Positions 1 to 23,430 of a stretch of DNA of 64,000 nt are shown here, in pieces. Numbering within the stretch: the stretch's first letter is position 1; each line of letters opens with the position of its first letter. Location: assembly GCA_013239625.1 (NCBI GenBank), contig MU053334.1, positions 755,190 through 819,189 on the forward strand, written 5' to 3'. The position numbers were made by a program, and so were the translations under genes. This DNA comes from Lama guanicoe. Its lineage: Eukaryota. The notes under the pieces were generated by a model that did not search any database, was not told the DNA's origin, and saw only the letters and a list, made by a program, of their open reading frames with translations.

Positions 1-200
1 AGTGACGCGCAGGGCGCCGCCTGCTGGGAGATGTAGTCCCGGTGGCCCCGCCCACTCGCCTGCGGCGCCCGGGTCCCCGGGGAGCTGTTCCTTCGCAGCC
101 CGGCTGTCCCCCTGCTCCCCACATTTCCCCCAAGCGCTGGCTGCCCCATCTCGCCAGAGGGAAGCGGCCCCTCCATCCGCCCCTCTCCGCCAGGTACCCT
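1..200. promoter_or_regulatory. Edge of a CpG-island promoter with a ZNF143/THAP11 (SBS) motif; probably the neighbouring gene's promoter (MOB2 by human synteny, not shown by the sequence)
   Basis: Minus strand of ~19-40 reads GGGACTACATCTCCCAGCAGGC, matching the ACTACAnnTCCCA motif; TGACG half-CRE at 3-7; CpG-rich. Confidence 0.6.
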
Positions 201-1399
201 CCTTCCCCGGGCCCTCTCTACAGGCTCAGGAAGCCTCAAATATCAGGCTGAGCGCTCAGTTGCCTTCAACAGATAGGTCTGGGTGGAAAGGAATTTATGC
301 ACGGATACTGGGTAGCTCACAGCACTGCCAGGAGAGCCGGGGAGGTGGAGAACTTCTGAGACCATGGGCCACTCACAGGGGCCTCTTCTGTGACTCTAAG
401 CCCCCGGTCTCCTGCCCTTCCCCCTGGTGGAGACCAGCAAGTGAAACCTTTCCATCCCAGCCTCCCTGGCAGCAGCGGGGGTCCAAGGACGCAGCTACAG
501 TCAAGGGGGTAAACCAGAGGTCTGCTGGGGAGGCTCCCTTCCCCAAAGGAAGGACCAAGCCTGGGGCAGAGAGGTGCTTGGACTTCTGCTGCTTCTGCAG
601 GGGCATGATGCCTGGAGGTACAAGACCACAGGGATGGACGCCTCTGGCTAAGAACAAGGATGGAGAAGACAGAACTTAGGACCCGGCTGACATGCTGCCC
701 GCCGTAGTGTGCCCGCCCTTTAGATACTTGAAACACCACTCACCCCTCCCTGACGGGCCCAACCTGAGTCTTGTCTGGGCCGGTCAGGTGCGCGGAGACA
801 CTGTTCTCCTTTTATTGTCTTCATCCCTGTGTGGCTCACAGGGAAAACCGCACACTTTTCCACCAACCACCTGAGACAGTGAGGAAAGACACTCCCCACA
901 GACAAAGGAAAGTGGGGAACTCGCTTAACACACAGCTGCTCAGAAAGGAGCAACACGCAGATAGCCGCCTGGGGCTCCGTCCATACAGCCCAACAAGTGG
1001 CCGTGGTTGAAATGCACGACTTCGCCTGGTGCCAGGCACTCTGCAGTTGCCTCACTGCCTAGCACAGTGACCCAAAGCATCCTTCCTGAGGAGTGCAAGC
1101 CCTGGGAGTTCCTGTGTGCACCCAGTTGCTACAACCTTCCCTTAACTGTCACTGGAGCTTCAGGCAGTCCTCCAAGGTTGTGTCCACCTTCCTGCCTCAC
1201 TACCAGCAGTCCTGTGTCTCCATGGGAGTCTGGGTTTTGGGTCTGTGCTCTTCCACTTACTGACTGGGTGACTTGGATAAGTTGTTTAATGTCCCAGTGA
1301 CTCAAGGCCTTTATTAGTGTAATGGGAGTAATAATGTGATCAGGTCACAGGTATCGGCTGAAGATGAGGAAGCAGGGAGGTATGACTTGGTGTATCAGG

Positions 1400-1560
1400 A
1401 GGGTGACCCACCTGCTCAGGCAACTTACTTGTGCTCCAGGTCCATCCACTTTCCCCTTGCTGATGGTTTCCTGTGAGGCACACCCCACTTTATGGCTTCA
1501 TGTCAGCCAGTCTGTAATGGGCAGTTCAGATCTCATGGTCATGTGATGTCCCATTGTCTT
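1400..1560 (-). mobile_element. Further ERVL internal fragment (continuation of the pol relic)
   Basis: Minus strand ACCATGAGATCTGAACTGCCCATTA...GCCATAAAGTGGGGTGTG...CACAAGTAAGTTG resembles ERVL pol downstream of RT. Confidence 0.55.
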
Positions 1561-1949
1561 AGGGACAGCCCAGAAATGGACCTCAGTGGCAAGCCCGAAC
1601 TTATATCTCAGAGAATCATGATTTATTTCATAAGACGATATGGCTTTGCTCCAAAAGCCTGGGGCCCTCCTATCTCATTCTTCTATTAGAGTTGCCACAG
1701 TCCCCACAGAGCACCGCTGGATCTGTCGAGTCAGAAGTTCCAAGTGATAGAACTGCTTATAACGCAGCCTCAGCTAAATCTTCTTCTCAGTTCAAAGCTA
1801 GTACACCCTTAGGTCTCTTGATAATTTGATAAGAACCGTACACTCATTGAGTGCTGGTCAGAGACTGTACATTACTTGCCCAATATCCGTATCCTCTTCT
1901 TTCTTCTTCCTTTTCTTCTGATTCTCTTCCGTCGCCACCTCCTCCTTCT

Positions 1950-2290
1950 TTTACTCAGCTTCCCATGTAGACAGGGTGGCCGATGAGATGTAAATGGAAG
2001 TTGTTGGATCGCTTCCAGGAAATCCTTTTTGTCCTTCCTCCCCACCCCCATCCTGGTCCAGCCTCTTGCTTCCTGACAATAACAGGAAAATGATGGCTGG
2101 AGCTTCTGCAGCCATCTTGGACCATGAGGCATGCAAACAATGGCAAGGGCAGAAAGAAAGAATCTGAGTGCCTTTGGAAACTCTGGGACCTCCACAGCAG
2201 TCCTAAACTTCTTACCTCCTTTAACTGAAAAAAAAAAAATCTTAAGCCACTGTTCTTTCCAGTTTCTGTTATTTGAAGTTGAAGGCAACT
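1950..2290 (+). mobile_element. Ancient LTR (LTR16/LTR33/late MLT1-like) interrupting the ERVL relic
   Basis: Motifs gatggctggagct..gcagccatcttggaccatgagg and ttaagccactg...tttctgtta. Confidence 0.5.
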
Positions 2291-3040
2291 GCCTAATTGA
2301 TATACTTATCAAAATGGTTGTGTTCTTCCTAGTGCTGAGGTGCTCAAGGTGTAATAACCTGTCCTTCACTTTGGAGGGAATGTCTTGATATTCCCGGATG
2401 ACTGAGCCCCTCAAATTTCACCTAAGTGTGGCAAGTTCCTAAATTTTGGTGAGATCTGTCCCCTGGGCAAGCATGTCTGTTATTTCAGTGTCTAGACTAC
2501 CGCCAAGTCCTGGGCCCCACAGCCTATCAATGGGACATACCCAGGTAATGGAATGATGTGAGTCCTGAGATAACCTGCATCTGCAGGGACTAAACCCAGG
2601 GGAAGGGCGTAAGGGCTGATGCCCATTTGGCAGGACCGCAGCAGTCTGCCAGTAATCGTGACCAAGGGCAGCTCACTGCTCTGGGCACTCCTGGTTGATG
2701 GGATGGGGTGAGGAGTGTTTGCACAATCTGTAGCTGAGTAATAACTGTGCTGATTTGCTCCAGGAAGGACATCACATCAGGAAGGGCAGCTGCAGCTGGA
2801 ATCATCCTGGCTTTAAACTTGCAATAACCCGCTGTCATCACCAACCTGCCTCCATCTTCTGCACAGACCACACGAGTAAGTAAAACTGGAGTGGGACAGG
2901 AGCCTCGTCCTCTGCACCCTCCGGGTCTCTGGTGGTGGCACTAACCTCCATGACTTCTCTGGAGATGCAGTTCTGCTTGGGGGCCACTGTTTTGGCAGGG
3001 AGGTGCACCTGGAGGGGTTTCCCCTGAGCCCTTCCTCTGT
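2290..3040 (-). mobile_element. ERVL-class endogenous retrovirus internal (pol/RT) relic
   Basis: Broken translations match ERVL Pol motifs as recalled: PKQNCISREVMEVSATTRD, VWSVQKMEAGW, MTAGYCKF...AAALPDVMSFLEQI, DIPSKVKDRLLHL. Multiple frameshifts. Confidence 0.8.
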
Positions 3041-3044
3041 CCAC

Positions 3045-3270
3045 TCATCCAGTCACTTGGCAAATAAGTATTGAGGGCCAGCCACGTGGCAGGCCCTGCT
3101 CGGGTGCCCGGAATGCAGTGGTAGATAAAAAAAAACCCAAAACAACCCCTATGGAGCTTACAGGCTAGTGGGAGTAGATGGTCAAGGAAAAAAGTAAGAG
3201 AGACATATAGTACATTGACAAGTGGTCAGGACTCTGTAGAATGATGACACCTACAATGGGGACAAGGAAA
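3045..3270 (+). mobile_element. L2 3'-end fragment
   Basis: cactcatcca..caaataagtattgagggcca..ggccctgct..atggagcttacaggctagtggg pattern. Confidence 0.55.
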
Positions 3271-3277
3271 GCTGGGG

Positions 3278-3672
3278 GTTGTGGGTCGAATTGGCCCCAC
3301 CCCCTAAAAGAGGTACACTGAAGTCATCAGCCCCCAGACCTCAGAATGTGGCCTTATTTGGAAATAGAATAATTGCAGATTAAATTAGTGAAGATGAGGT
3401 CATCATGGAATAGGGTGGGCACCTAATCAAGTATTGCTAGTGCCCCTGTAAAAAGGGGATATTTGAGCACATAGCAAGGATGGTGAGAAGAGACGGGGGG
3501 AGGATGGCTCTCTGCAAGCCAACGAAAGGCCCGGGCCAGACCCTTCCCCCAGCAGCCCTCAGAAGGAAACAGACTGCCGACGCCACCCACAACCGTGAGA
3601 CAGTAAACTCCTGCTGTTATCGGCCACGCGGTTTGTGGTCCTCTGTTACAGCAGGCCGTCCTCACTGATACA
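3278..3672 (+). mobile_element. MaLR solo LTR (MLT1-type)
   Basis: acctcagaatgtggccttatttggaaatag...gatgaggtcat...agggtgggc..taatc; end gtttgtggtcctctgttacagcag..ctgataca. Confidence 0.8.
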
Positions 3673-5525
3673 CACGCCCATCCCCAACCTTGTCTTTTCC
3701 ACCAGACACTGGCCTTCTGCCCAAATTGTGAGGGGCACCTGGAGCCGTGTGCCAGCTGGGAGTTGCAGGGTGGGGAAACAGGGCCTTGGTTTTCCCAGTT
3801 ATGCTTTGCTCTGGACTGGGGACTTCTTGAGGCAGGACCCCCAGGAATCCCCCAAAGGAAGCTGTCCTCTGTTGTGGGTGGAGGGTGAGGCTTCCAGGGT
3901 AAGAGTGACCACATGGACAAGTCTGAAGGGAGGAAGCTGACTCTCAGCGGCCGATGCTGGGCACCAGCATCGAGCCCTGCTGGGTCCTCCCTTCTCCTGC
4001 ACCGCCTCCAGCCTGACCCTGTCTGTCCGTCCCGCAGGCCCGCTCACTGCCGGCGCTGTGGGCAGAGGGCCGCCCTCCGGCTGCCTTCCCTTCTGCCTGA
4101 CAACCAGTGGGGAGCACGTTCAGTTTGCTGTTCCAGAGCGTCCCCTCCCAGGGCCTGGTTGCCCGGCCAGGAGGCCTTGTCACGGGCCGGGCCACCTGAT
4201 GGTCTTTCTCCTACACTCGGAGGCTCTCTCTTGCCTTCCGAGCTGGTTCTTGTGTCTGGGACAGTCCCAGGTGAGGCTGAGAGTGAGTGACAGCTGGGCC
4301 AGGGCAGCAGAGAGGGCGGCCCTTGTGTCCCTGCCATCACAGAGGTCAGTGTTTCCTTGTCTCAGGGAAGCCGAGGGGTCTGCTTTGGGGAAGGCACTGC
4401 GGGAAGCCAGCCTCCTGGGATCTGCAGAGGTGGGTGGCCCCCCATCGACCCACTGCTGGCCTTCCCCCTCCCAAGGCATAGGCTCTTCCAGTCCCTCAGC
4501 TGCCAGGGAGGATGCCCTCCTGCAGATCCACACTTACTCACTCAGAGATCTCAGGAAGGAGACAAGGACTCTTAGAGGGACAGGGACGTGTCCAGATGCC
4601 TTAGTGAGCAAGTGGGGAGCTGGGATTCCAGAACCATCTGTTCCCAAGCCCGGGATCTTCCCTCTACATTCTGCCTGGCAGAGGGGCTCTCCTCCCTGCA
4701 TCCTGAGCAGACAGTGGAAGAGGTCACCCATGGGAGCAGCCCTTGGAGCGGTCCTGTCTGGCAGTAGCAGAAGGGCTGAGCTGCCTGGAGAGTGCCCCTC
4801 CCCCTGCAGAGAGCAGGAAAACCCCTTTTGGGGGGCAGTCATCTTAGGTTCTGAGGAAGTAGGGGCTGGGATTACTTCTGGGGCACTCACCACCTGTCCA
4901 CCCACGGCCTCTACCCGCTACCCCCTCCCAGCCTCTGCCCTTTTCCATTGCGCCCTCCCCGGCTCAATTTCCTGGGCTGGTCGGGGCAGAGCAGTCTAAG
5001 GTTCCCTATGCCATGGCCCTGGCAGGCGGCAGTGAAAGGAGCAGGCCTGGGAGGGAGTCAGGAGACTGGGCCCTCCTCCCCACATGCCGCTAGCCAGCTC
5101 CAGCTCACCCCTGTCTCCTCCATTCAATGGGCAGGGGCTATTAGACATTGGGGGGGGTCCCCAAATGCTACATCTCCCAGTGTGCACATGCAGCAGGCTC
5201 CCTGGAGAAGCTGGGAATACAGATTCCTGGGCCCTATCTCCCCCCCCGCCTCTGTAGGTCTGGATGGAGCCCAGGAATCTGTGTTTGAAGATGCTCTCAG
5301 GGGACCCTGAAGGGCAAGAAGCCATGGACCAGATGGTCCCTGGTGGCTTTTCCTGGTCCTGACTGAACTGGTGCCTTCTATCTCTGGTCTGAGGGCTCCA
5401 GGCAGTCAGGCCGGCTCCACAGCTGGAAATCCTGGTGCCCAGAGCAGGCTGCTGAGCAGAGCAGTGAGACAGGTGTGCGGGGCCGCCCCTGGTCATGTCC
5501 ATGCCTACTGGCTGATTCCCGCCAT

Positions 5526-5750
5526 TGGCTGCACTCTGTCCTACCCAAAATGATATGTCAGTCCTTACCTCTCCCCTCCCAGTGCCCCAGAATGGGACCT
5601 TACTTGGAAATACGGTCTTTGCAGATAAAATTAGCTAAGATAAGGTCACCAGGTGGGCCCTAATCTTATATGACGGGTGTCCTTATAAACTGGGGACGTT
5701 TGAACACAGACACACACACAGGAGGATGCTTTTGACCATGAAGGCAGAGC
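5526..5750 (+). mobile_element. MaLR LTR 5' part (MLT1-type)
   Basis: agaatgggaccttacttggaaatacggtctttgcagat...ggtgggccctaatc..atgacgggtgtccttataa. Confidence 0.75.
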
Positions 5751-6299
5751 TCTGGGACTGTCAGTGCTGGGCCCTTCTGGGCAGAGCGGGCAGAGGCGGA
5801 CCCCCAACAGAGGGAGACAAGTGTGTCTGCTCAGCAATGGGACGGAGGATTTGAGTGAGGCCCTGCACCTAAGACTGGGGGAGCCACGGAGGAGCATGGA
5901 GTGACACTAGCAGAACCAGGCAGGGGCACCTTCGAGGAAGAGAAGAGGACCTGGCCCCAGGCGGGTTCTTTGTAGGCCGCTCAGTGGAGGGGGGAGGGAC
6001 CAATGGAGGAGGCCAGAAACCAGAGGCCAGGCGGTTGGTGAGAGGTGCAGGGGGGCGGGCTGCGGGCCTAGTCAAGAACGGTGCTGCTTACTGGAGGGCA
6101 GTGGGGTGAGGATGGGGAAGGAGGGGTGAAGGGCTGTGGGCCAGGGGCAGGGAAGGGAGTTGGAGTTGCTGAGAGGGAAGGGAGACTAGGTAGCACCCAG
6201 CAGCTTGGCATTTCCGGGTCTGAAGGCCAAGGATGAAATCTGGCTGGAGACACAGTGGTGGCAGTTGACAGCATTTGTGTCCCTGATGCCTTGGGTATG

Positions 6300-8700
6300 G
6301 CTGCGGGGCAGGGCGGCCAGAGCAGGTGGAGATTGCGGGCAGTTGAAGCTGCAGACCCGCCAAGGGGAGGGCGTCAGAAGGAAGATTGAGGGGAGGGTGC
6401 CGTGGGGCTGGAGGCCGCTGAAGACTCGGACTCCCAGGCCACCCTTCCAGCCTGCAGGGCCCCTGGGATGTGCGGAGGCTGGGGGTCCTGGCCCGAGAAC
6501 CGGCTGCCCCTCTGCTGGCGCGGGCAGCAGGTGGCGCTGCCGGCTGCTCTCGGGGTTCTGGAAGTGTGGGGACGGGTGACCCGCGAGCCCAGGTGGGAGC
6601 CCGAGGCCGGAGAGGAGCGCCCAGTGCGCTGGGCCCGGCGGGCCTAGCCTGGAGGGGCGCTCGCCTCATCCCCGCCCGGCAGGTGTTTAGTTGTCTGGGG
6701 CCGGGCCGGGCCGTGGGCGGGGGCGGAGGCCGGCGATACCCACGGGCTTCCGCGCGGAGCAGGTGCTCACCGCGCCCCTCTCGGCTCGGGGCCCGGGCCA
6801 GCGAGGGTGCGCAGAGGACGGGAGCGCAGGGGCAGCGGCGCTTTGAGGATGAAGGGCGCCGCGGCGGGCCGGGCAGGCAGCGTCCGGGGGTGGGCGCGGC
6901 TTTCCCGGCATGAGCTCCGCGCGAGCCGGCGGCGCACCCACCGCGCCTAGCCTCCAGGCCCTCGGGCCTTGGGGCTGGCCCGGCGGTACCCGCCGGTTGG
7001 GGGGGATCTTGGCTCCTGGGAGGAGGACCCCAGGGTTGAGAATGTGATGGGGGCGCTTCCAGAAAGCCTAGAGGCCGGCTGCTCCCGCCCCAGCTAGGAC
7101 GCTCTGGGCGCCCCTACACCTGGGCTGACGTCGCCGCCCAGCCCAGCAGCCCCGCCGATGCTGGTGGGACCGCGCCCACTCCCCACGCTGGCGTTGCAGC
7201 CGCTTCTTCCCCCTACTGGGTCTTCGGCCTTGGGGAGGAGCAGGGCAGCCACCACCTGCGGGGAGAGGTGAGAGCCCCCATCGTCCCCTCCCCTTCCCCG
7301 TCCTAGGGCCCCAAATCCTGCCCCTCCTGGAGCTTCCTGTTAGGGTTGACTCACAGGGAAGGGCCTTATCAGCTGCTCCCGCGCCACCCTCTTGTTCTTT
7401 ATCCGTTCCCAGCCTGCCAGCTCCCCTCCCCACGGGTGACCACCAGCAGAAACCAGGAGCGGAGAGGGGCGGGCGCCTGGATGGGGGAACCTTAGAAAGG
7501 GTGAACTCCCCGTGGGAACCGTGCGTGAAGTCACGGGGCCAAGGGGAACTCAAGGAGGAAGCCCTGAGGTTCTCTCCTTCACCTCTGTGCCCCGCGTGAG
7601 GTCGCAGTCCTGCAGGCCCTGTTCAGATCCCCAGATAAGATGGTGGGAAAGGGCGGAGTTTCGCTTCTGCCCGTCCTGGGAGACTTCAGGAAGGGGGGCC
7701 GCTCTACCCGCAGGCCCCCTGGGAGCGGGAGGCCGAGAGCCAGGCGGGGAGCTGTGGCCGGCACAAGCCCCATCCCGCCCCGCACCGGCCCCCACCCCCG
7801 CCTCCGGCATCCGGCTGGCTTGACTTCACCCTGCCTCCCCAAACGTTTCCGGGGACGGACACCCCGTTGGACGGCGGCGGGGGTGGGGCTCTAGAACGGG
7901 GCTTTGTTTTCTCCCCTGGCCTCAGGCGTTCCGGTCCTTTCTCCTCCCGTCGGCGCTCCGGGACTCCGGCCCCTTCCCCCCACTTCTATTTCAAGCTCTC
8001 CTTGGCTATTTATAGCTACGTCAGCCGATTGCGTCAGGCTGAGTCTGGCTTCGACCAGCCCCGACGCCAGTGGTGCCACCACCCCGGTCCCGGGCCGTCA
8101 CCTGCCCTGCTGGGTCCCGGGGGCGGCCCCAGGTGTGGACGCTCGGGCGGCGCGCACGGCCTGGGGCCGGGACGCCGCGGGGGTGGGGGTGGGGGAGCCC
8201 TGGGAGGGCACGTGCCGCGGGCCGAAGGGGAGACGCCCCGCCTCATTCGAGGCAGGGAGCGGGTAAGGGGCAGCTCTCCCCGGGCTCCCAGGGTTGCCAC
8301 GCTCGGCTGCCCCGAGGAAAGGCTTTCGCTGCTCAAGTCAAATTTGGCGTTTGCAGAGAGACGGAGAAGCCGATGTCCGCCCGCGGCTGCCTCCCTGAGG
8401 CCAGCCCCTACGCGCGGGCCCCTGGGGGTGACGGTGGAAGGCCTGCTCTGCTTTGAAAGACGGGAGGGAGCTCCCCAGGGACCTGCCTAGGGTTGGCCGA
8501 GGCCTGGCCCAGGCGTCCTCCTGCCCCACAGCCTTTGTGCGCTTGGCGTGGGGGCGGGGGCGGGGCGCGTTTGTCTCCGCCGCCCACCGCCGGCGCTGCC
8601 TCCGGAAGCTGGACCTCTTTCGCCGCCTGGTTCCCTGCTGGCTGCCCAAGACTGGTTTTGGTCCCCTCCTCAGAGGGAGCCACTCCTTGTTGCCCCTTCT
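6300..8700. promoter_or_regulatory. Intergenic CpG island / enhancer downstream of DUSP8 with MEF2, CRE-like, AP-1 and CTCF-like motifs
   Basis: High CpG density; CTATTTATAG 8006-8015; TACGTCA 8017-8023; TTGCGTCA 8029-8036; TGACTCA 7347-7353; GCAGCAGGTGGCGCTG 6524-6539. Confidence 0.7.
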
Positions 8701-8845
8701 CCCTTCTGCCTTCATAAAGCCACCATCACATCGTTAGAGCCAGCTGCCCGTCTGTCTGCCCAGCGCAGCCCCCTCCCAGTCTGGGAGAGTGGGACACCCA
8801 CTGCCCGTTTCCGCTCTTCACACCCTCAGAGGCTCTGCGGCGTCT

Positions 8846-8939
8846 CCTTTTTTCTTTTCTAATTGAAGTATAGTCAGTTTGTGATGTGCCAGTTTCTGGT
8901 GTCCAGCATCATGTCTTGAGCCACACACACACACACACG

Positions 8940-8974
<35 letters not shown>

Positions 8975-9480
8975 GCATTCCTTTTCATGTCCTTGCTCAC
9001 GATAGGGTACCGCAAGACACTGGGTGCCGTCCCTGCGCTCTGCGGAGGAAGCTCGTTTGTTTCATATGTACTAGTGAGTGTCTGCAAACCTAGAACCCCC
9101 GATTTCTCCTTCCCCCACCCTTTCCCCCCAGTAACCATACGTTTGTTCTCTATGTGAGTCTGTTTCTGTTTGGTAAATAAGTTCATTTGTGTCTTTTTTT
9201 TTTAGATCCCACATATGCGTGGTATCACGGTACTTTTCTTTCCCTTTCTGACTTACTTCACTTAGAACGAGGATCTCCAGGTGCATTGATGTTGCTGCAA
9301 GTGGCATTATTTTATTCTGTTTTATAGCTGAGTAGTATTCTGTTGTATAAACACACCACAGCTTATTTACCCAGTCGTCTGTTGATGGACGTTTAGGTTA
9401 TCTCCATGTCTTGGCTGTTGTAAATGCTGCTGCTGTGAACGTTGAGGTGCATTGTCTTTTTGAATTAGAGTTCCCCCTGG
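8846..9480 (-). mobile_element. LINE-1 3' end (artiodactyl/camelid type), with internal CA/CG microsatellite at 8923-8975
   Basis: ttttctaattgaagtatagtcagttt start; tagatcccacatatg..ctgacttacttcactta..atctccaggt..catt..tgttgctgcaa. Confidence 0.85.
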
Positions 9481-10154
9481 ATGTATTATGGCTTCTCCTT
9501 GACTGCAGAAGTCCTCTCCCCTGCCCTAGACAGACCATATTTCATCGGTTTTGCAGAAATTCCCCCACCCCGCCTGCCGTTCAGAGCCGTGCAGAGCCAC
9601 GCCTCACTTCCCATCAGAGGTGGTCCACTTCTGCAAGGCCCCAGCAATGTGCACGCCCACCTCTGCCCTCTCCAAATACAGCCTGGACTTGAGAGCCTCC
9701 CCGAGAACCTGCCTTCTTCACCCCCTGCTCAGAGCTCCCTCAGGTCTGAGCCTCAGAAGCACTGTGACAAATCCATCTGCAAGAAGACTGGTCTGAGCAG
9801 AAGGGGTCTGAGGGCCACTGAGACCAGCTACTTCCTAGATGCTTTCAGAGGCTGCTCTGCCTGGCAGAGTGGAGCTTGGAGATCAGGGAACTGAGTCAGC
9901 CTCCCACTCTACCCTGACTCTGGGGGATGCTGAAGTTGGTTCCCCTCCGTGGGCCTTGGCGAGGGCTGGACTGGGTCTCTACAGTGGTGTGCAGCTCTGA
10001 GACTGGTGATTTGTGGCTTGTTCATTGAACATTTTCTGGCACCTTCTGTACCAAGGACCGGATGCCTGTGTTCCAGTGGGAGAATGGAGGTAAGCACACA
10101 GCTTTGATAAAAGGCCGATTGGTAGAAGTGCACTAGGTGTGTGATAGAATGTTA

Positions 10155-10445
10155 CTATTCACCCACCTTCTTTCCCTCCTTCTCTGCCTTCCATCCATCC
10201 ATCCATCCATCTCCTCACCCACCCTCCCATTTACCCATCTATCCATCTCCACCCTCAACTACCTACCCACCCATTCATCCATCTGCTCATCCACATACCC
10301 CTATCCACCCATCCACTCCTTAATCACCCATCCTCCCAACCATCATCCATCCATGCATCCATCCATCCATCCATCCATGTGCCCTCTCTCCCTCCCAGCC
10401 ACTCACCTACCCACTCATCCATCTATCCACCCACCAGCCGTCCAC
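10155..10445. repeat. (CCAT)n-like low-complexity repeat, probably an L2-tail derivative
   Basis: Runs of ccatccatccat and cacccaccta. Confidence 0.8.
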
Positions 10446-10464
10446 CGCTGCAGTCTAAGTGCCT

Positions 10465-10890
10465 GATAATTAGGTTTTTTGGTTGTCAAGTGCCTGATTG
10501 TTGTCAAGCTTTTGATTATTGAGGTGTCCATCCATTTGGAACAAACACATGGCCACCTACACAACTGAAGAGCCAGGCCGCCCCACCCATGAGGGTCCCT
10601 GTTCAGAAAGCCCTGGATGACAGATAACTGATCCCTTGTGTGACCCCATGTTTCCCGTTCCATACCTTAATTCCCACTTTTGTCTTAATTCACCAATGAA
10701 GAGTAAATTCTCAAAACCCTGGGCCCCCCAGCCTTGACCCCAATAAGAGCAGAACCCCAGGTCTACACTCTCTCTCTTCCTGTGACCTCTCTGTGTGATC
10801 CCCGGTGTGCTGTGTATCTTCCAGGCTCTGTGAGTAACAAACTTTGTTTTTCCGAAGTTCTCTGGCGGTTGTTGTTGAGCGGTGTGGCGG
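10465..10890 (+). mobile_element. Probable ERV solo LTR
   Basis: LTR-like order CCAAT, TATA-like caataagag, pyrimidine tract, poly(A)-like gtaacaaac; it splits the CCAT/L2 tract. Family not identified. Confidence 0.45.
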
Positions 10891-12502
10891 GCAGACGTCT
10901 GTGGGGGCTTCCGTGAGGAGCGCAGGCCCAGGTGAGGGCTGCCAGCTTCCCGGCCCCTAGAGCACGGTCAGCAGGCTGAGACCAGCCTCGAGGATCCCGT
11001 CCCACTCATCTGTCCAGCCATCCAGGACCGATCAAGTGCCTAAATCTCTTGGCTTGGGGGCCAGGGTGACACAGAGGCAGGAGCAGGGGTGCCCAGCATC
11101 AGGGGACCGGGTGTTCGGGGACCAGGCTGTGGAGTCGGGTCGAGAGCAGGTGGAGGCCAGCCCACCAGGCCCAGGTCTTGCCTCCCCACTGCCTTGCTCA
11201 GCCCTTGGCAAATCTGACCTCTGGGAACCTGGGGGACTGGGGAAACGGCCTCCCTGATGCCACTGGCCCCAGGGTCCTGAGGCCTTCTGTACCCCTGCTG
11301 GTCACCTGCCCCTCCCATGTCAGGGCAGGGGAAGTACCACTGTGCCCGTGCAACGACTGTCAGCTTTTTCCAGTTCTGTTTTATGGACTTCAGGGGGCTG
11401 CCAGAGTTATAAATAGACGTTCCTGAGCTAAAGATAGCCTTGCCAGAGCCACAGCCAGTGTCTCTAGCTTTTGGCCTCTTGGAGGACTTCTGAAGATGCA
11501 AGATCTGAGGACCCTACCTCCTCCCGCAGCCTCACCCTTTCATTTTCTCTCGCTTCCTCTTCCTCCCAGGCCTCCGGAAACACACGTACACCACGCACAC
11601 GTGTGTGCTCACCCCCTTGCCCTTGTGCTCATATACACACACGTGTGTGGTCACACCCACAAGCAGAGACACAGGTCTGGCTGTTGTCACTGGTTTGGGC
11701 TACCTGCCTGCTTGAAAAGGGGGAAGGAGCTGTAGGGTGAGCAGGTGAACCCTCCAAGTTGGGGCAGAGGCCCTCCAGGAACTGGTGCTGCGTTAGCCGG
11801 GGGACTGTGGGGCTGGGGCCCAGGTCTGCTGGCGAGGCTGCCTGAAGACTGCGGGCACTAAGTTCTCAGGAAACACAGAGGGGTGCCTGGCGTGTAGTGA
11901 GCGCTCAGTGTATTGGAGCTGCTGCGATGGTAACAACCAGGCCAACTCTGGAGTGACCCGGAGGAGTCGTGTCTAAAATCCGTCCCAGGGCAGCACAGCA
12001 TGGACGCTCAGAGCTACTGTGTAAACCCACATGGGCAGGTGAACCCCAACCCCGCCATGGGGGCTGCTCTAGCGCGTTCCACGCACACACTGTGATCAGG
12101 GAGGGAGGCCTGCCTCTGGGGAGAGAACCCACACTCACGTGTGCACACACTCAGAGCTCTGCAAGGGCGCGTGGAACTGTTCCCATGGGTTACTTCTGGA
12201 GAGGGGTGGGGGGAGCTGAGGGGCAAAACTGAGTTTCCGTTGGACACAGTTTTAAGTTATGTGAATTTTCAGTAGCACGTAGCAACAGAAAGGGTGCTTT
12301 ACATCCCAGGGTGCAGCCAGGGACGTGGGCTCTGCCTGCCCAACCTGCCCGCTGGGCTCAGGGTAGTGAGTCCCGAGCAGTCTGACTTTCCAGGCCCAAC
12401 TCCCCAACCTCCTGGGCCCAGGAAGCCCCTCTCCCACCCACCCACCCTCCCCAGCCTGAAGAAAGAGGCAGTCGAGGCGCAGAGAAAACGTCCAGCTCAG
12501 AA

Positions 12503-12535
12503 TTTATTACAACACGATTCAGTTCAGAATTTATT
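12503..12535 (-). terminator. DUSP8 polyadenylation signals (two AATAAA, 27 nt apart)
   Basis: Plus-strand tttatt at 12503-12508 and 12530-12535; each reads TGTAATAAA on the minus strand. Confidence 0.8.
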
Positions 12536-13186
12536 ACAACACGTTTCCAAATACAAAAGAAGGGGACAGGACAGGGGGCAGAGTGTGGCCGCGCTGGGGG
12601 AGGGGTTCTGAGGAAGGGTGGGCAGCTGGGTGGGTGGCCCAGTCCAGAGAGACCGGGAGCCCTGTCGGGGTACCTGCCACCTCTCCTCTGCTGGACTTCC
12701 CAGCAGATAATAGGAGGGGGCTGGGATGGGACCCCCCATTGCCAGGGCACTGGGCCGGGACAGGAGGGGTGGGAGGGCCGAGAGGCCTGGGGGCCCACCC
12801 CCTCCCTCTTGGACCGTGGGTAGAAGTGACGAGGGAGGGGCTCTTGCCCAGTGCCTGGTTCCCCCAGCACAGGTGGGGGTGCGGCTGAGGCAGGACCTTC
12901 TCCCCTGTCCCAGCTGCTCACTTTGGGGTGACCAGTGTCGCAAGAGCCCCCACGTGCCCCAGGACAGAAGCCACAGAAGGCCCTGCAGCCCTGGAGAAGG
13001 ACGGAAGGAGGGAGGATGGGTGTGGGACCTGCCTCGAGTTCTGGGGCCCAACCAGTGGCCCCGACCACTGTCTCCTGGACAGCACAGGGGTGGGGCGCGG
13101 AGGTGGGGGCCAGTGCATCCTCCACACCCAGGGTCACCTCAGAAACCCAACGCAATAGACAGACAAGAGGCAAATTTACATAATCA

Positions 13187-13206
13187 ATAATAATAATAAT
13201 AATAAT
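13187..13206. repeat. (AAT)n microsatellite = (UUA)n AU-rich tract in DUSP8 3' UTR
   Basis: aataataataataataataa. Confidence 0.85.
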
Positions 13207-13264
13207 TAACCAATAATAATAAATACTTAAACCTCTAATCCATGGATTGCAAATACAACAATGA

Positions 13265-13272
13265 TAGCTTAT
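13265..13272 (-). promoter_or_regulatory. miR-21-5p 8mer target site (ATAAGCTA) in DUSP8 3' UTR
   Basis: Plus tagcttat = minus ATAAGCTA, the exact complement of the miR-21 seed AGCUUAU plus A1, in AU-rich context. Confidence 0.7.
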
Positions 13273-15012
13273 TTTCTGGGGGATGGGCGGGGACAGAGGG
13301 GAGAGGAACAGGACTTCAGGTCATAGGAGGGAGGACAGGGACATAGGGCTGGGGGTCAAAAGAAGAACAAATAGAAGAAACAGCCAGAGAACAGCTGGGG
13401 GGGCAGGCACCCCCCCCATGCCTGAGGACTCAGTCCTGCCCGGGTCACCCCTCCTGCCAAGCCCCTGACCTAGTCCCAAGGTGACCAGCCCCTACTCCTA
13501 GACTCTCTAGGACATCAGGTTGGAGGACGTTAATTCCTGCCTCCCAAAGCCTTGGGTCCCACCGACCCAAGAGGGTGGGGGCGGCTGGGGCTTTTCTCCT
13601 GCCCTCACCCCCAGGCTGGCCCGCCTGGGCCAAAAAGCCACCTGCGGGTGGGGACTGGCACGTCACCTCAAAGATACCAGGGAGACTTCAGAGAGGAGAG
13701 CTCCCCGGGAAAGGGGTGTACGGGGTGGGGGGCTCTCTCCTCCGAGGTCCTTGTGGGGCTTGGGGCAGACATAGGCCCCCTTCATCTGCTTACATCAGGG
13801 ACCTTTACCTGCCTGGAGATGGCTCTCCCAAAACTAAGGGCCTCACCCTCTAGGAGTGAAAGGGTCTGACAGGCATTTAACTGCCCACTTCCTCCGCAAA
13901 GCGGTCACTCGTGGAGGTACCTCAACCCGCAGGACCTTCCTGAACTCTAGGTCTGACCTGGGGCCTAGGGGGGTGGGACAAGAGCCCACACCAAGCCTCT
14001 AAGTCCCTCTGCCCTCTGCTCAGTGGCGCGGGCACTGGCTGGCCCAGCTCCTCTCGCTTGACACCTGCAGGGGCCAAGCCCCCCTCCTGCTGTTCCCCAC
14101 CTGGCAGCTGGCGCTAGGGGGCACCCATGAAGCAGAGGAGAGGGGAACAGCTTCCTCTGAACTGGTGAAACTAGACCCAGGCTCAGGCAGGAGTGGAGAC
14201 ATTCCATCTCCAGCCCGCCCTGGGGACCCAAATCATCAGACACTCCGGGGGCCCCCTTCACTGCACTCCGGCCCTGTTCCACACCCCAGCCGTCTCAACA
14301 CCCCGGTCTCCTCAGGCCCAAGCCCTCAACACCCGCCAGGCCACAGGCCCGGGGGGGGGGTGGGCAGTGGAGGTGCCCTCAGTGGCACCAAGCTTTGGCT
14401 CCTGGAGCTGACAGGCTGCTAGAAGTGCCCCCTCCACTACACCCCGGCTCCTGGAGACACTGCCTCCCACCTATGGCTTTGGCGCAGAGCCCAGAAGACG
14501 CAGGGGAGCTGGAAGAGGTTGGGGAGGACGGGGCGGGCAGGGAGGTTCTGCGGCTCAGTTTGTGGCAAAGTTTTTTTTTTATCCTTTTTTCCCCCTTTTT
14601 CTTATGTAAAAAGTGCACAAAAGCTCAGCAGCCTCTTTGCATCGATCAGCAGTGTTTCCTGGGGGAGCGGGTGGAGGGGACCCCAGGCCTGGCACCCCAG
14701 CCTGCAACTGAAGGTGGCCTCATATTGCTTAGAAACGTGGGTTTCAGTTTAAATACCAGACAGTAAAAATAGAGCTCAGAGGGCCGCCCGCAGTGTTGCC
14801 AAATCATTGCCAGAATGAACAGCTCAAATAAATAAAAAATTGAAATATTTACTTCTCGATAAAAATCGCAGTAAAACCATTTACCTTTCTTTGCGATACA
14901 TATACTATATATTTATAGCGGGCCGGCTGCTGGCGGCCCAGCCGAGGGAGCGGACGGCGGCAAAGGCGCTCGGGGCGCTGGGTCCCCGCGGAAAGGCCGC
15001 GCCCGGCCGCGG

Positions 15013-15234
15013 TCAGGACACCTCGATGACCTCCACGCTGCCGGAGAAGCTGGCCTGCTTGCCCAGGGCGGCCAGCTCCTCGCCGCGTGCGCGCCCCTCC
15101 ACCATGCCCTCCTCGAACTCCATCTGGCAGCTCCGGCGCTTGAACTGCGTCTCCGGGGCCGGCTCGTCCGGCCAGCCGGTCCTCGCGTCCCGGGCCTCGG
15201 GCCTCGCCGCCTCCCGCCGCCGCTGGCCGCCACT
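15013..15234 (-). CDS. DUSP8: DUSP8 conserved C-terminus (SGGQRRREAARPEARDARTGWPDEPAPETQFKRRSCQMEFEEGMVEGRARGEELAALGKQASFSGSVEVIEVS*), out of frame with the upstream part as assembled
   Basis: Direct translation gives the DUSP8/DUSP16-type ending KRRSCQMEF...SFSGSVEVIEVS with TGA at 15013-15015. Only 2 nt (15235-15236) separate it from the upstream frame. Confidence 0.88.
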   Translation of the reverse strand, partial: SGGQRRREAARPEARDARTGWPDEPAPETQFKRRSCQMEFEEGMVEGRARGEELAALGKQASFSGSVEVIEVS

Positions 15235-15236
15235 AA

Positions 15237-15966
15237 CGGCGTGCCCGGGGAGTCGAGCGGTGGAGCCCAGCCCCCGGGGCCGGCCGGCTGGCCTGGGCCA
15301 GGCAGCCCGGGCGCCGACAGGGCCGAGAGGCCGTGCCGCGGAGTGTGCCGGGGGGCGTCGCCGAAGTTCAGGCCGAGGCCGTGGGCTGGGGAGCGCGCGG
15401 GGGAGCCCGCTGGAGGCCTGGGCCGCCTGCGGAGCCTCGGGCGCGTCTCCGGCGCCGCGTCCGGGCTGTCGGGGCTGGGCGAGGGCAGGCCCAGCGCACC
15501 CCCCGACGGACTGTCCAGCTTGCAGAGCTTGGGGGCCTCGCCGGGGTCCGGGGGCCCGGGGTGGTCGGGCCGCCGGCTGGGGGCGTAGGCCGACTTGATG
15601 TCCAGCGAGAAGGAGCGCTTGAGGCGGTTGGTGTCCTGCAGGCGGTCGGAGGAGAGGTGCAGGCCCCGCAGGCCCTGCTGCAGCGCGCTGGTGGCCGGGG
15701 CTGGGGCCAGGGCCTCGCCCCCTGCCGTCTGGGCGCCCTCCCTGGCTGCAGCAGCCGCTGCGCTCCCGGTGGCAGCGCTCTCTGAGGTAGGTGGTGGCAG
15801 CGGTGGCAGTGGGGCCGCAGGGCCTGGGAGGGGCTCCGGGGTCCCCGGGTAGGGAGCCCCGTCGCCCTGCAGGGCGGCCAGCAGCTTCAGGCTGCGCTCA
15901 TACTCCAGCAGCTGGCCCAGGAAGTTGAAGTTGGGCGAGATGGACGGGCGCCGGTCCTTCACGAAC
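15237..15966 (-). CDS. DUSP8: DUSP8 exon 7, 5' part (RFVKDRRPSISPNFNFLGQLLEYE...LQQGLRGLHL...LDSPGTP), up to the apparent frameshift
   Basis: Acceptor ccccag|G at 15966. Contains the DUSP motif RPSISPNFNFLGQL, an NES-like LQQGLRGLHL and a PEST-like tail. As assembled, this frame runs on to TAA at 14913-14915. Confidence 0.93.
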
Positions 15967-16159: not shown

Positions 16160-16283
16160 CTGTAGGCGTCGTCTGAGGACATGCCCATGGTCTTCATGAT
16201 ATACGCGATGGCGATGGTGGCAGAGCGGGAGATGCCGGCCAGACAGTGGACGATGACTTGGCAGCTGGACAGCTTGGCTTTAT
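16160..16283 (-). CDS. DUSP8: DUSP8 exon 6 with PTP active-site signature VHCLAGISRS
   Basis: Acceptor cctctag|AT; donor CAG|GTAGCC; 124 nt; intact HCxxGxxRS motif. Confidence 0.98.
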
Positions 16284-16445: not shown

Positions 16446-16605
16446 CGATGAACTCGATGGACTTGTCCAGCCAGGGCAGCAGCTTGTCACAGTAGTTGTC
16501 ATTAATGGGGATGCGCAGGAAGCGGCTCTCGCAGATGAAGTCGGGCTTGGGGCAGGAGCTGCTGGCGTTGAGAACGTAGCTGATCCCGTTCTGGGTCATC
16601 AGATC
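16446..16605 (-). CDS. DUSP8: DUSP8 exon 5 (DLMTQNGISYVLNASSSCPKPDFICESRFLRIPINDNYCDKLLPWLDKSIEFI-D)
   Basis: Acceptor cccccag|GAT; donor TCG|GTGAGC; 160 nt; includes the general-acid Asp loop (INDN). Confidence 0.97.
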
Positions 16606-17191: not shown

Positions 17192-17358
17192 CTTGTTCAG
17201 GACGTCCTTCTGAGAGCCCAGGTACAGATGGGGCAGGATGCGGGTCAGGCCCACGCTTGGCACGGGCAGACAGGGCTGGGAGATGCTCATGGGCAGCAGG
17301 GCAGTAGGCTTGCCCTCACAGAGGCCAGGGAAGCAGGAGGAGAAGGTGGCAAAGCCCC
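17192..17358 (-). CDS. DUSP8: DUSP8 exon 4 (GGFATFSSCFPGLCEGKPTALLPMSISQPCLPVPSVGLTRILPHLYLGSQKDVLNK)
   Basis: Acceptor ttctgcag|GG; donor AAG|GTGTGT; 167 nt. Confidence 0.97.
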
Positions 17359-21760: not shown

Positions 21761-21899
21761 CCGTGAGGATGGCCACACTGTCAAAGCAGCCGTCCAGCTT
21801 GCTGAGCAGGATGGAGAGGAAGCTGTCTGCGGCCAGCACGCTGGCGTCCCGGGTGCTCTGGTCATAGACCACCACGTCCTGTGGCTCTGCGGCCTCCAC
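21761..21899 (-). CDS. DUSP8: DUSP8 exon 3 (VEAAEPQDVVVYDQSTRDASVLAADSFLSILLSKLDGCFDSVAILT-G)
   Basis: Acceptor cccccag|GTG; donor CGG|GTGAGT; 139 nt. Confidence 0.97.
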
Positions 21900-23199: not shown

Positions 23200-23430
23200 C
23201 TGGCCGCGCACGGCGGGCTGGATCAGCTCGGCGATGGTCACCTTGCCCTGCTGCAGCCGCCGCTTCACCAGCTTGGAGCAGCAGATGTTGACGGAGCTGA
23301 GCACGTGCCCGCTGTTGTACTCCACGAAGGAGCGGCTGTCGATGACCAGCGGCCCCCCGGGCCCGCCCCGCAGCAGGCTGGCCAGTTTCCTGGCGTCCAT
23401 CACCTTCCGAGGGAGCCGGTCCCCGGCCAT
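23200..23430 (-). CDS. DUSP8: DUSP8 exon 2 coding part (whole exon 23200-23537): MAGDRLPRKVMDARKLASLLRGG...KLVKRRLQQGKVTIAELIQPAVRGQ, rhodanese/CH2 domain with MAPK docking motif
   Basis: ATG in GCCATGG context; acceptor ctccctgcag|G at 23537; donor CAG|GTACCG at 23200; 231 nt, phase 0. Confidence 0.97.

Follow-up and report, generated by a model that had tools for sequence, protein, structure and literature searches.

In assemblies built from Sanger and Illumina reads, GC-rich coding DNA has been shown to contain false indels and to lack sequence, errors for which gene models compensate with false mini-introns (Kim et al. 2022, Genome Biol 23:204, PMC9516821). The cases described in the relevant parts of that paper resemble the locus reported here, in that a GC-extreme exon of a draft assembly carries an apparent frameshift while a near relative with a better assembly has the exon intact. 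They differ from it in scale and position, since only indels of less than 10 bp are counted as frameshifts there and the bias is seen mainly at 5' exons, whereas here about 97 nt of a last exon are involved. They also relied on read mapping, whereas the present case is known from the comparison of assemblies and proteins. The gene concerned is DUSP8, and the passages on this phosphatase in a review (PMC6227380) describe virtually nothing as known about its physiological function.

The window analysed here, a single stretch of 64 kb, contains the six coding exons of DUSP8 on its minus strand, all with GT-AG borders. The alpaca protein XP_072826651.1 (P0121, 623 aa) served as the guide, and the dromedary protein XP_064348037.1 (P0138, 622 aa) as a second reference. 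The features of the locus as assembled are as follows.

23200..23430, minus strand: coding exon 1, with the ATG at 23430 and a GT donor after 23200; 75/78 residues identical to P0121 (tblastn).
23200..23430, minus strand: content of exon 1, part of the rhodanese-like domain (Pfam PF00581, E 2e-4) and the basic motif LVKRRLQQGK.
21761..21899, minus strand: coding exon 2, placed by the peptide anchors EAAEPQDVV and SVAILT and by its AG/GT borders.
17192..17358, minus strand: coding exon 3; 56/56 residues identical to P0121, borders checked.
16446..16605, minus strand: coding exon 4, first part of the DSPc domain (PF00782, E 1.9e-7, profile positions 13-66), borders checked.
16160..16283, minus strand: coding exon 5 with the catalytic loop VHCLAGISRS (PF00782, E 2.4e-15, profile positions 69-107; translation and borders).
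15237..15966, minus strand: native part of the last exon, FVKDRRPS...LDSPGTP, up to residue 517; A478P is one of four differences from P0121.
15223..15236, minus strand: junction of 14 nt, TTAGTGGCGGCCAG, where relatives have 111 nt (37 codons, SPDGPWCF...GGGDL).
15013..15222, minus strand: conserved C-terminal module RRREAARPEAR...KRRSCQMEF...SFSGSVEVIEVS plus TGA, in a frame that differs from that of the upstream exon part.
14913..15236, minus strand: assembled reading frame of a 107-aa Arg/Ala/Pro-rich tail, with TAA at 14915-14913, 100 nt past the canonical stop.

Everything upstream of the junction has the expected form. The rhodanese-like family PF00581 was found in exon 1 with a score equal to the 22.2-bit cut-off that applies to this fragment, and the motif LVKRRLQQGK in the same exon is taken here to be the docking (kinase-interaction) motif of DUSP8. 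The dual-specificity phosphatase profile PF00782 matches three pieces, in exon 4, in exon 5 and at the start of exon 6, which together account for positions 13-132 of 133, and a catalytic loop of the HCxxGxxR type is present in the translation of exon 5. Among the 120 database matches listed, the named proteins are overwhelmingly DUSP8. The locus is best explained as an ordinary, functional DUSP8 gene, encoding a JNK/p38 MAP-kinase phosphatase, of a lamine camelid. The tblastn and Pfam results leave the exon with the docking motif and the catalytic exons intact, as an earlier reading made from the sequence alone (the sequence-only reading) had claimed for the docking site and the catalytic domain. 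Elsewhere in the window (1-14000 and 24000-64000), none of the 131 stop-to-stop open reading frames of at least 110 aa matched a Pfam family at E<=0.001, so the window offers no second gene by which the quality of the assembly could be judged. The GC content of the window, about 0.65 at first, falls to about 0.45 beyond 32 kb.

The reading frame is broken within the last exon. The final proline of LDSPGTP is encoded by CCG at 15239-15237, followed by TT (15236-15235) and then by AGT GGC GGC CAG CGG CGG CGG. The frame that begins with AGT reads SGGQRRREAAR...KRRSCQMEF...SFSGSVEVIEVS and ends at the TGA at 15015-15013, so that the C-terminal extension KRRSCQMEF...SFSGSxEVIEVS is encoded whole at 15222-15016 and lies out of frame with the catalytic domain. 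Exons 1-5 sum to 821 nt, and the coding sequence up to the canonical TGA amounts to 1775 nt, which leaves a remainder of 2 on division by 3. Translation as assembled continues to the TAA at 14915-14913, giving a coding sequence of 1875 nt and a protein of 624 aa without internal stops. This protein consists of 517 native residues and the 107-aa tail, which contains 23 Arg, 21 Ala and 19 Pro and matched no Pfam family. The sequence-only reading was accurate on each of these points: its frameshift with two nucleotides after the CCG holds to the base, its length of 1775 nt agrees with the sum of the exons, and its 624-aa product with an Arg-rich tail of 107 aa is reproduced by translation. All of this follows deterministically from the letters, so that chance plays no part in it.

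In the closest relatives the same exon is intact. The alpaca and dromedary RefSeq proteins and a camel-like protein from a Logan contig (P0001), which resembles the dromedary sequence, all read LDSPGTP, 37 further residues and RRREAAR in a single frame. Compared with these sequences, the window has 14 nt in place of 111 nt, a net loss of 97 nt, which equals the difference between the alpaca coding sequence (1872 nt including the stop) and the 1775 nt found here. The earlier estimate, which drew on recall of the human protein, had put the loss at about 34 residues or about 100 nt; the loss itself stands, and the estimate was close to the exact figures. Camelid DUSP8 orthologues share with the window a coding structure of six exons and a C-terminus of 69 residues that is identical or differs by one change; unlike the window, they have the full 111 nt, and the two halves of the last exon, which are out of frame in the window, are not so in them. 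The intact alpaca and dromedary proteins derive from contigs 75 Mb and 73 Mb long, so that the complete sequence is found in an independent, better assembly of the same species or of a sister species. Both camelid tribes are represented by chromosome-scale assemblies with an undamaged gene.

The 517 native residues are identical to alpaca P0121 at 513 positions and to dromedary P0138 at 512, with a gap of one residue in the latter case. The 69 residues of the out-of-frame C-terminus are identical to alpaca at 69/69 positions and to dromedary and reindeer at 68/69 each, which agrees with the perfect preservation that had been noted from the sequence alone. The four differences from alpaca lie at residues 10, 22, 45 and 478, and the window and alpaca have the lamine-type residues Y313, A444 and H481 in common; the window is thereby placed in the llama/alpaca group, although its sequence is distinct from the alpaca RefSeq model. 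In exon 1, the alpaca RefSeq protein has A10, A22 and R45, where the window, the dromedary RefSeq protein and other mammals have V, G and S; these may be either alpaca-specific changes or errors of the alpaca model. The comparisons with alpaca, dromedary and the Logan contig protein, taken with the preserved C-terminus, exclude an old camelid-wide change. Together with the intact docking-motif and catalytic exons, they bear out the preference of the sequence-only reading for a recent allele or an assembly drop-out over an old change of the lineage.

The module that is out of frame here is conserved from reptiles and birds to mammals. The ending GSxExIxVS was found in 147 of 150 compared proteins of at least 480 aa; every one of the 150 was a hit to a DUSP8 query, and many belong to closely related species and are therefore not independent of one another. 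Three proteins end differently: one from a mole (...AEAIRVS), a UniRef isoform of chimpanzee with another end, and one ending in ...VEVIEMS. The distance from LDSPxxP to QFKRRSCQMEF is an in-frame 40-70 residues in 115 of these proteins, with a mode of 62 (55 proteins); 15 others matched an earlier anchor and are uninformative in this count, and 20 had no anchor. Because the spacing varies in frame and the module is present in 147/150, the missing segment is thus a length-variable linker rich in Gly, Ala and Pro, with a module behind it that appears always to be kept in frame. The module is also encoded, as KQFKRRSCQMEF...SSFSGSMEVIEVS and then a stop, at a paralogous locus of the same genome (L004 1501-1809; G000:C6145:7043345-7043653) in an open frame of 431 aa; this locus is presumably DUSP16-like. 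The near-universal presence of the module among DUSP8 proteins and at the paralogous locus supports an error of assembly and speaks against a real replacement of the C-terminus. Conversely, the tolerance of the linker for in-frame changes of length suggests a mutable, repeat-like stretch and counts in favour of a recent real deletion. In the same sense, DUSP8 is described in the review as having a complex trinucleotide repeat that is translated (PMC6227380); sequence of this kind mutates readily, which weighs against the artefact.

An older dromedary gene model provides a second example of damage in this segment. The protein KAB1251601.1 (P0088, Camelus dromedarius, 556 aa) leaves the frame after LDSPGTPSPD and returns to it at WPDEP. 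The 49 residues that follow LDSPGTPSPD match no orthologue, and 19 of them (WRPAAAGGGEARGPGREDR) correspond to the third frame of the window (14849-15232, minus strand), which identifies P0088 as frame-shifted in the same segment. About 50 residues further upstream (GALGLPSP...TPRHG) are also omitted from this model. P0088 is like the window in that precisely this segment of the last exon is garbled; unlike it, P0088 has 49 residues there against 50, a length that indicates small indels instead of a loss near 100 nt. The apparent behaviour of this model resembles the tiny compensating introns described in the portions of Kim et al. 2022 (PMC9516821) that deal with gene models. Since P0088 is garbled at a place where the dromedary RefSeq model, which is later, has no damage, the segment is technically difficult, and its having defeated another camelid assembly supports the same cause in the window.

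The junction itself is untidy. When its 14 nt are compared with the codons for GGDL or AGGQ, about 3 of 12 positions are mismatched and the TT remains as filler; the relatives' codons used here are inferred from proteins, those for GGDL being deduced from the correspondence between the wrong-frame reading of P0088 and the third frame of the window. Judged by this comparison, the junction does not seem to represent a clean deletion. Real deletions with short filler insertions do occur, which counts against an artefact. Ten of the filler bases on the coding strand, GGCGGCCAGC (15222-15231), are the exact reverse complement of 15067-15076, 145 nt downstream. A templated origin of the filler was considered on this account and rejected as probable chance, because the inverted match does not extend beyond 10 nt; 15 inverted pairs occur in 601 nt, this one included.

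Searches for the junction and for the missing DNA returned little beyond the locus itself. A 22-mer spanning the junction occurs once in the genome, at the locus, with up to 2 mismatches allowed, and a 27-mer across it was absent from metagenome contigs, in which 596 pattern matches to the relatives' DNA gave no confirmed case. A DNA search of the assembly for the missing piece recovered the window and one paralogue only, and when 106 residues of P0001 were compared with the genome, nothing matched the missing part significantly and the remaining hits had E>1. The missing piece is therefore not present elsewhere as a stray contig, which is a point against the artefact. Parts of the stretch were detected in 21 of 24 sequencing runs, with a best sampled-word share of 0.85 (X1), and six runs of 'organism A' gave shares of 0.77-0.85; these shares are uninformative on the junction.

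No DNA of the locus is richer in GC than that at the junction. The 100-nt windows at 15150-15249 and 15200-15299 have GC contents of 0.83 and 0.84, and in about 268 kb of the contig values of at least 0.83 are reached in just 23 of the 4042 windows of this size. The draft assembly comprises 2.05 Gb in 55,231 contigs. Two N gaps (40 N and 119 N) occur in the 268 kb, both in GC-rich or repetitive DNA and with flanks of 0.65-0.75 GC, so that a GC-extreme site is combined here with an assembly that has gaps in DNA of this kind. The 40-N gap (L013 1996-2035; G000:C650:677185-677224) has flanks of 0.74-0.75 GC that by eye look coding, KYDGRKADVWSCGVILFA and GALPFDDDN, which we take to be a BRSK2-like pair of protein-kinase exons. 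The 119-N gap (L021 3383-3501; G000:C650:822572-822690) lies inside a repeat of the CAGCTGGAGCAGGAGCCACAGCC type, apparently the reverse strand of a gene for a Cys/Gly/Ser-rich keratin-associated protein. Within the 64-kb window there is no N gap, which counts against an artefact. In addition, the 730 nt upstream of the junction (0.77-0.84 GC) and the 207 nt downstream contain no errors relative to alpaca; the assembly has thus coped with very GC-rich DNA elsewhere in the exon, a point that favours a real allele.

The shifted tail was not recovered from the databases searched. For the open reading frame as assembled, none of the 120 matches listed (proteins of 221-706 aa) covers more than 78%, and a query with the tail gave no match at E<=0.01 among 8000 candidates of 89-284 aa. 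Among short fragments there were 21 hits of 30-341 aa, and of the 12 examined none was lamine-like across the junction and none carried the tail. The short protein P0184, for which no source is given, is the window's own small open reading frame. A search of the literature for DUSP8 with camel or alpaca gave no paper on camelid DUSP8, as judged by title and abstract.

On this indirect evidence, the frameshift in DUSP8 is probably caused by a drop-out of sequence or a fault of assembly in extremely GC-rich DNA. A local assembly error is the likeliest cause because the closest relatives have an intact exon, and the lack of decay in the downstream frame, the absence of the shifted tail from the database matches listed, the untidy junction and the garbled older dromedary model all point in the same direction. 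The GC-linked false indels documented for Sanger and Illumina assemblies in the corresponding sections of Kim et al. 2022 (PMC9516821) provide the precedent. During sequencing or assembly, the last exon would have lost about 111 nt where it is richest in GC and codes for Gly, Ala and Pro, with too few or error-laden reads over DNA of more than 83% GC leaving a gap. The flanks would then have been joined through 14 nt of poor consensus, either as a local join or in the course of gap closure, and both the net loss of 97 nt and the tail of 107 aa would be false. The anatomy of the locus, the intact exon of the relatives and the extreme GC content are demonstrated here; from them we infer that the join was made in the assembly rather than in the germ line.

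The main competitor of an assembly fault is a real and very recent germ-line event, in which 111 nt were deleted and 14 nt inserted, private to the animal or polymorphic in its population. Such an event would explain the clean reading through the junction, which has no N and is accompanied by no other frame error in the exon, as well as the accurate flanks of similar GC content; perfect conservation downstream would be predicted equally. Since four native residues differ from the alpaca RefSeq protein, the DNA could also belong to a different species or individual, and there a private deletion may have arisen. Nevertheless, the event is considered unlikely, as the nearest relatives are intact, the tail appears in no database protein matched, the junction is messy and the module is nearly universal (147/150). 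Furthermore, a genome has far fewer deletions of about 100 nt in the exons of constrained genes than assembly faults linked to GC content. That an animal of the llama/alpaca group carries a real allele, perhaps in the heterozygous state, with docking and catalytic domains kept and the module exchanged for the tail, is only marginally less unlikely. In this case, the last 106 residues (37 + 69 in alpaca) would be replaced by the Arg-rich tail of 107 aa. A stop codon in the last exon should allow the mRNA to escape nonsense-mediated decay.

A change fixed in this camelid species, whose DUSP8 would then normally end in the Arg-rich tail, is very improbable. The four differences from the alpaca RefSeq protein among 517 native residues, which may indicate a different lamine species, are its sole support. 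Against it, the C-terminal frame, which would no longer be translated, is identical to alpaca at 69/69 and to dromedary at 68/69 positions, although such close kin give this comparison little power; moreover, a protein of this kind is absent from the databases searched, and both camelid tribes are intact. Rescue by the cell, through a cryptic intron or ribosomal frameshifting that restores the frame so that the conserved C-terminus is still made, has the intact downstream frame as its only pointer and can be dismissed as extremely improbable, since no GT...AG pair removing 3n+2 nt was evident by eye around 15223-15240, and the device is ad hoc and needed by no relative.

Under the leading explanation, an assembly fault, the frameshift is not real biology, and its consequences concern annotation. 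Gene models built on this assembly would receive a false C-terminus of DUSP8 or a false mini-intron, and comparative or gene-loss screens could score a false change in a camelid gene. If the frameshift were real, it would represent a rare natural swap of the C-terminus in one of the least studied MAP-kinase phosphatases, and it would offer a natural experiment on the function of the conserved C-terminal module that DUSP8 shares with its paralogue.
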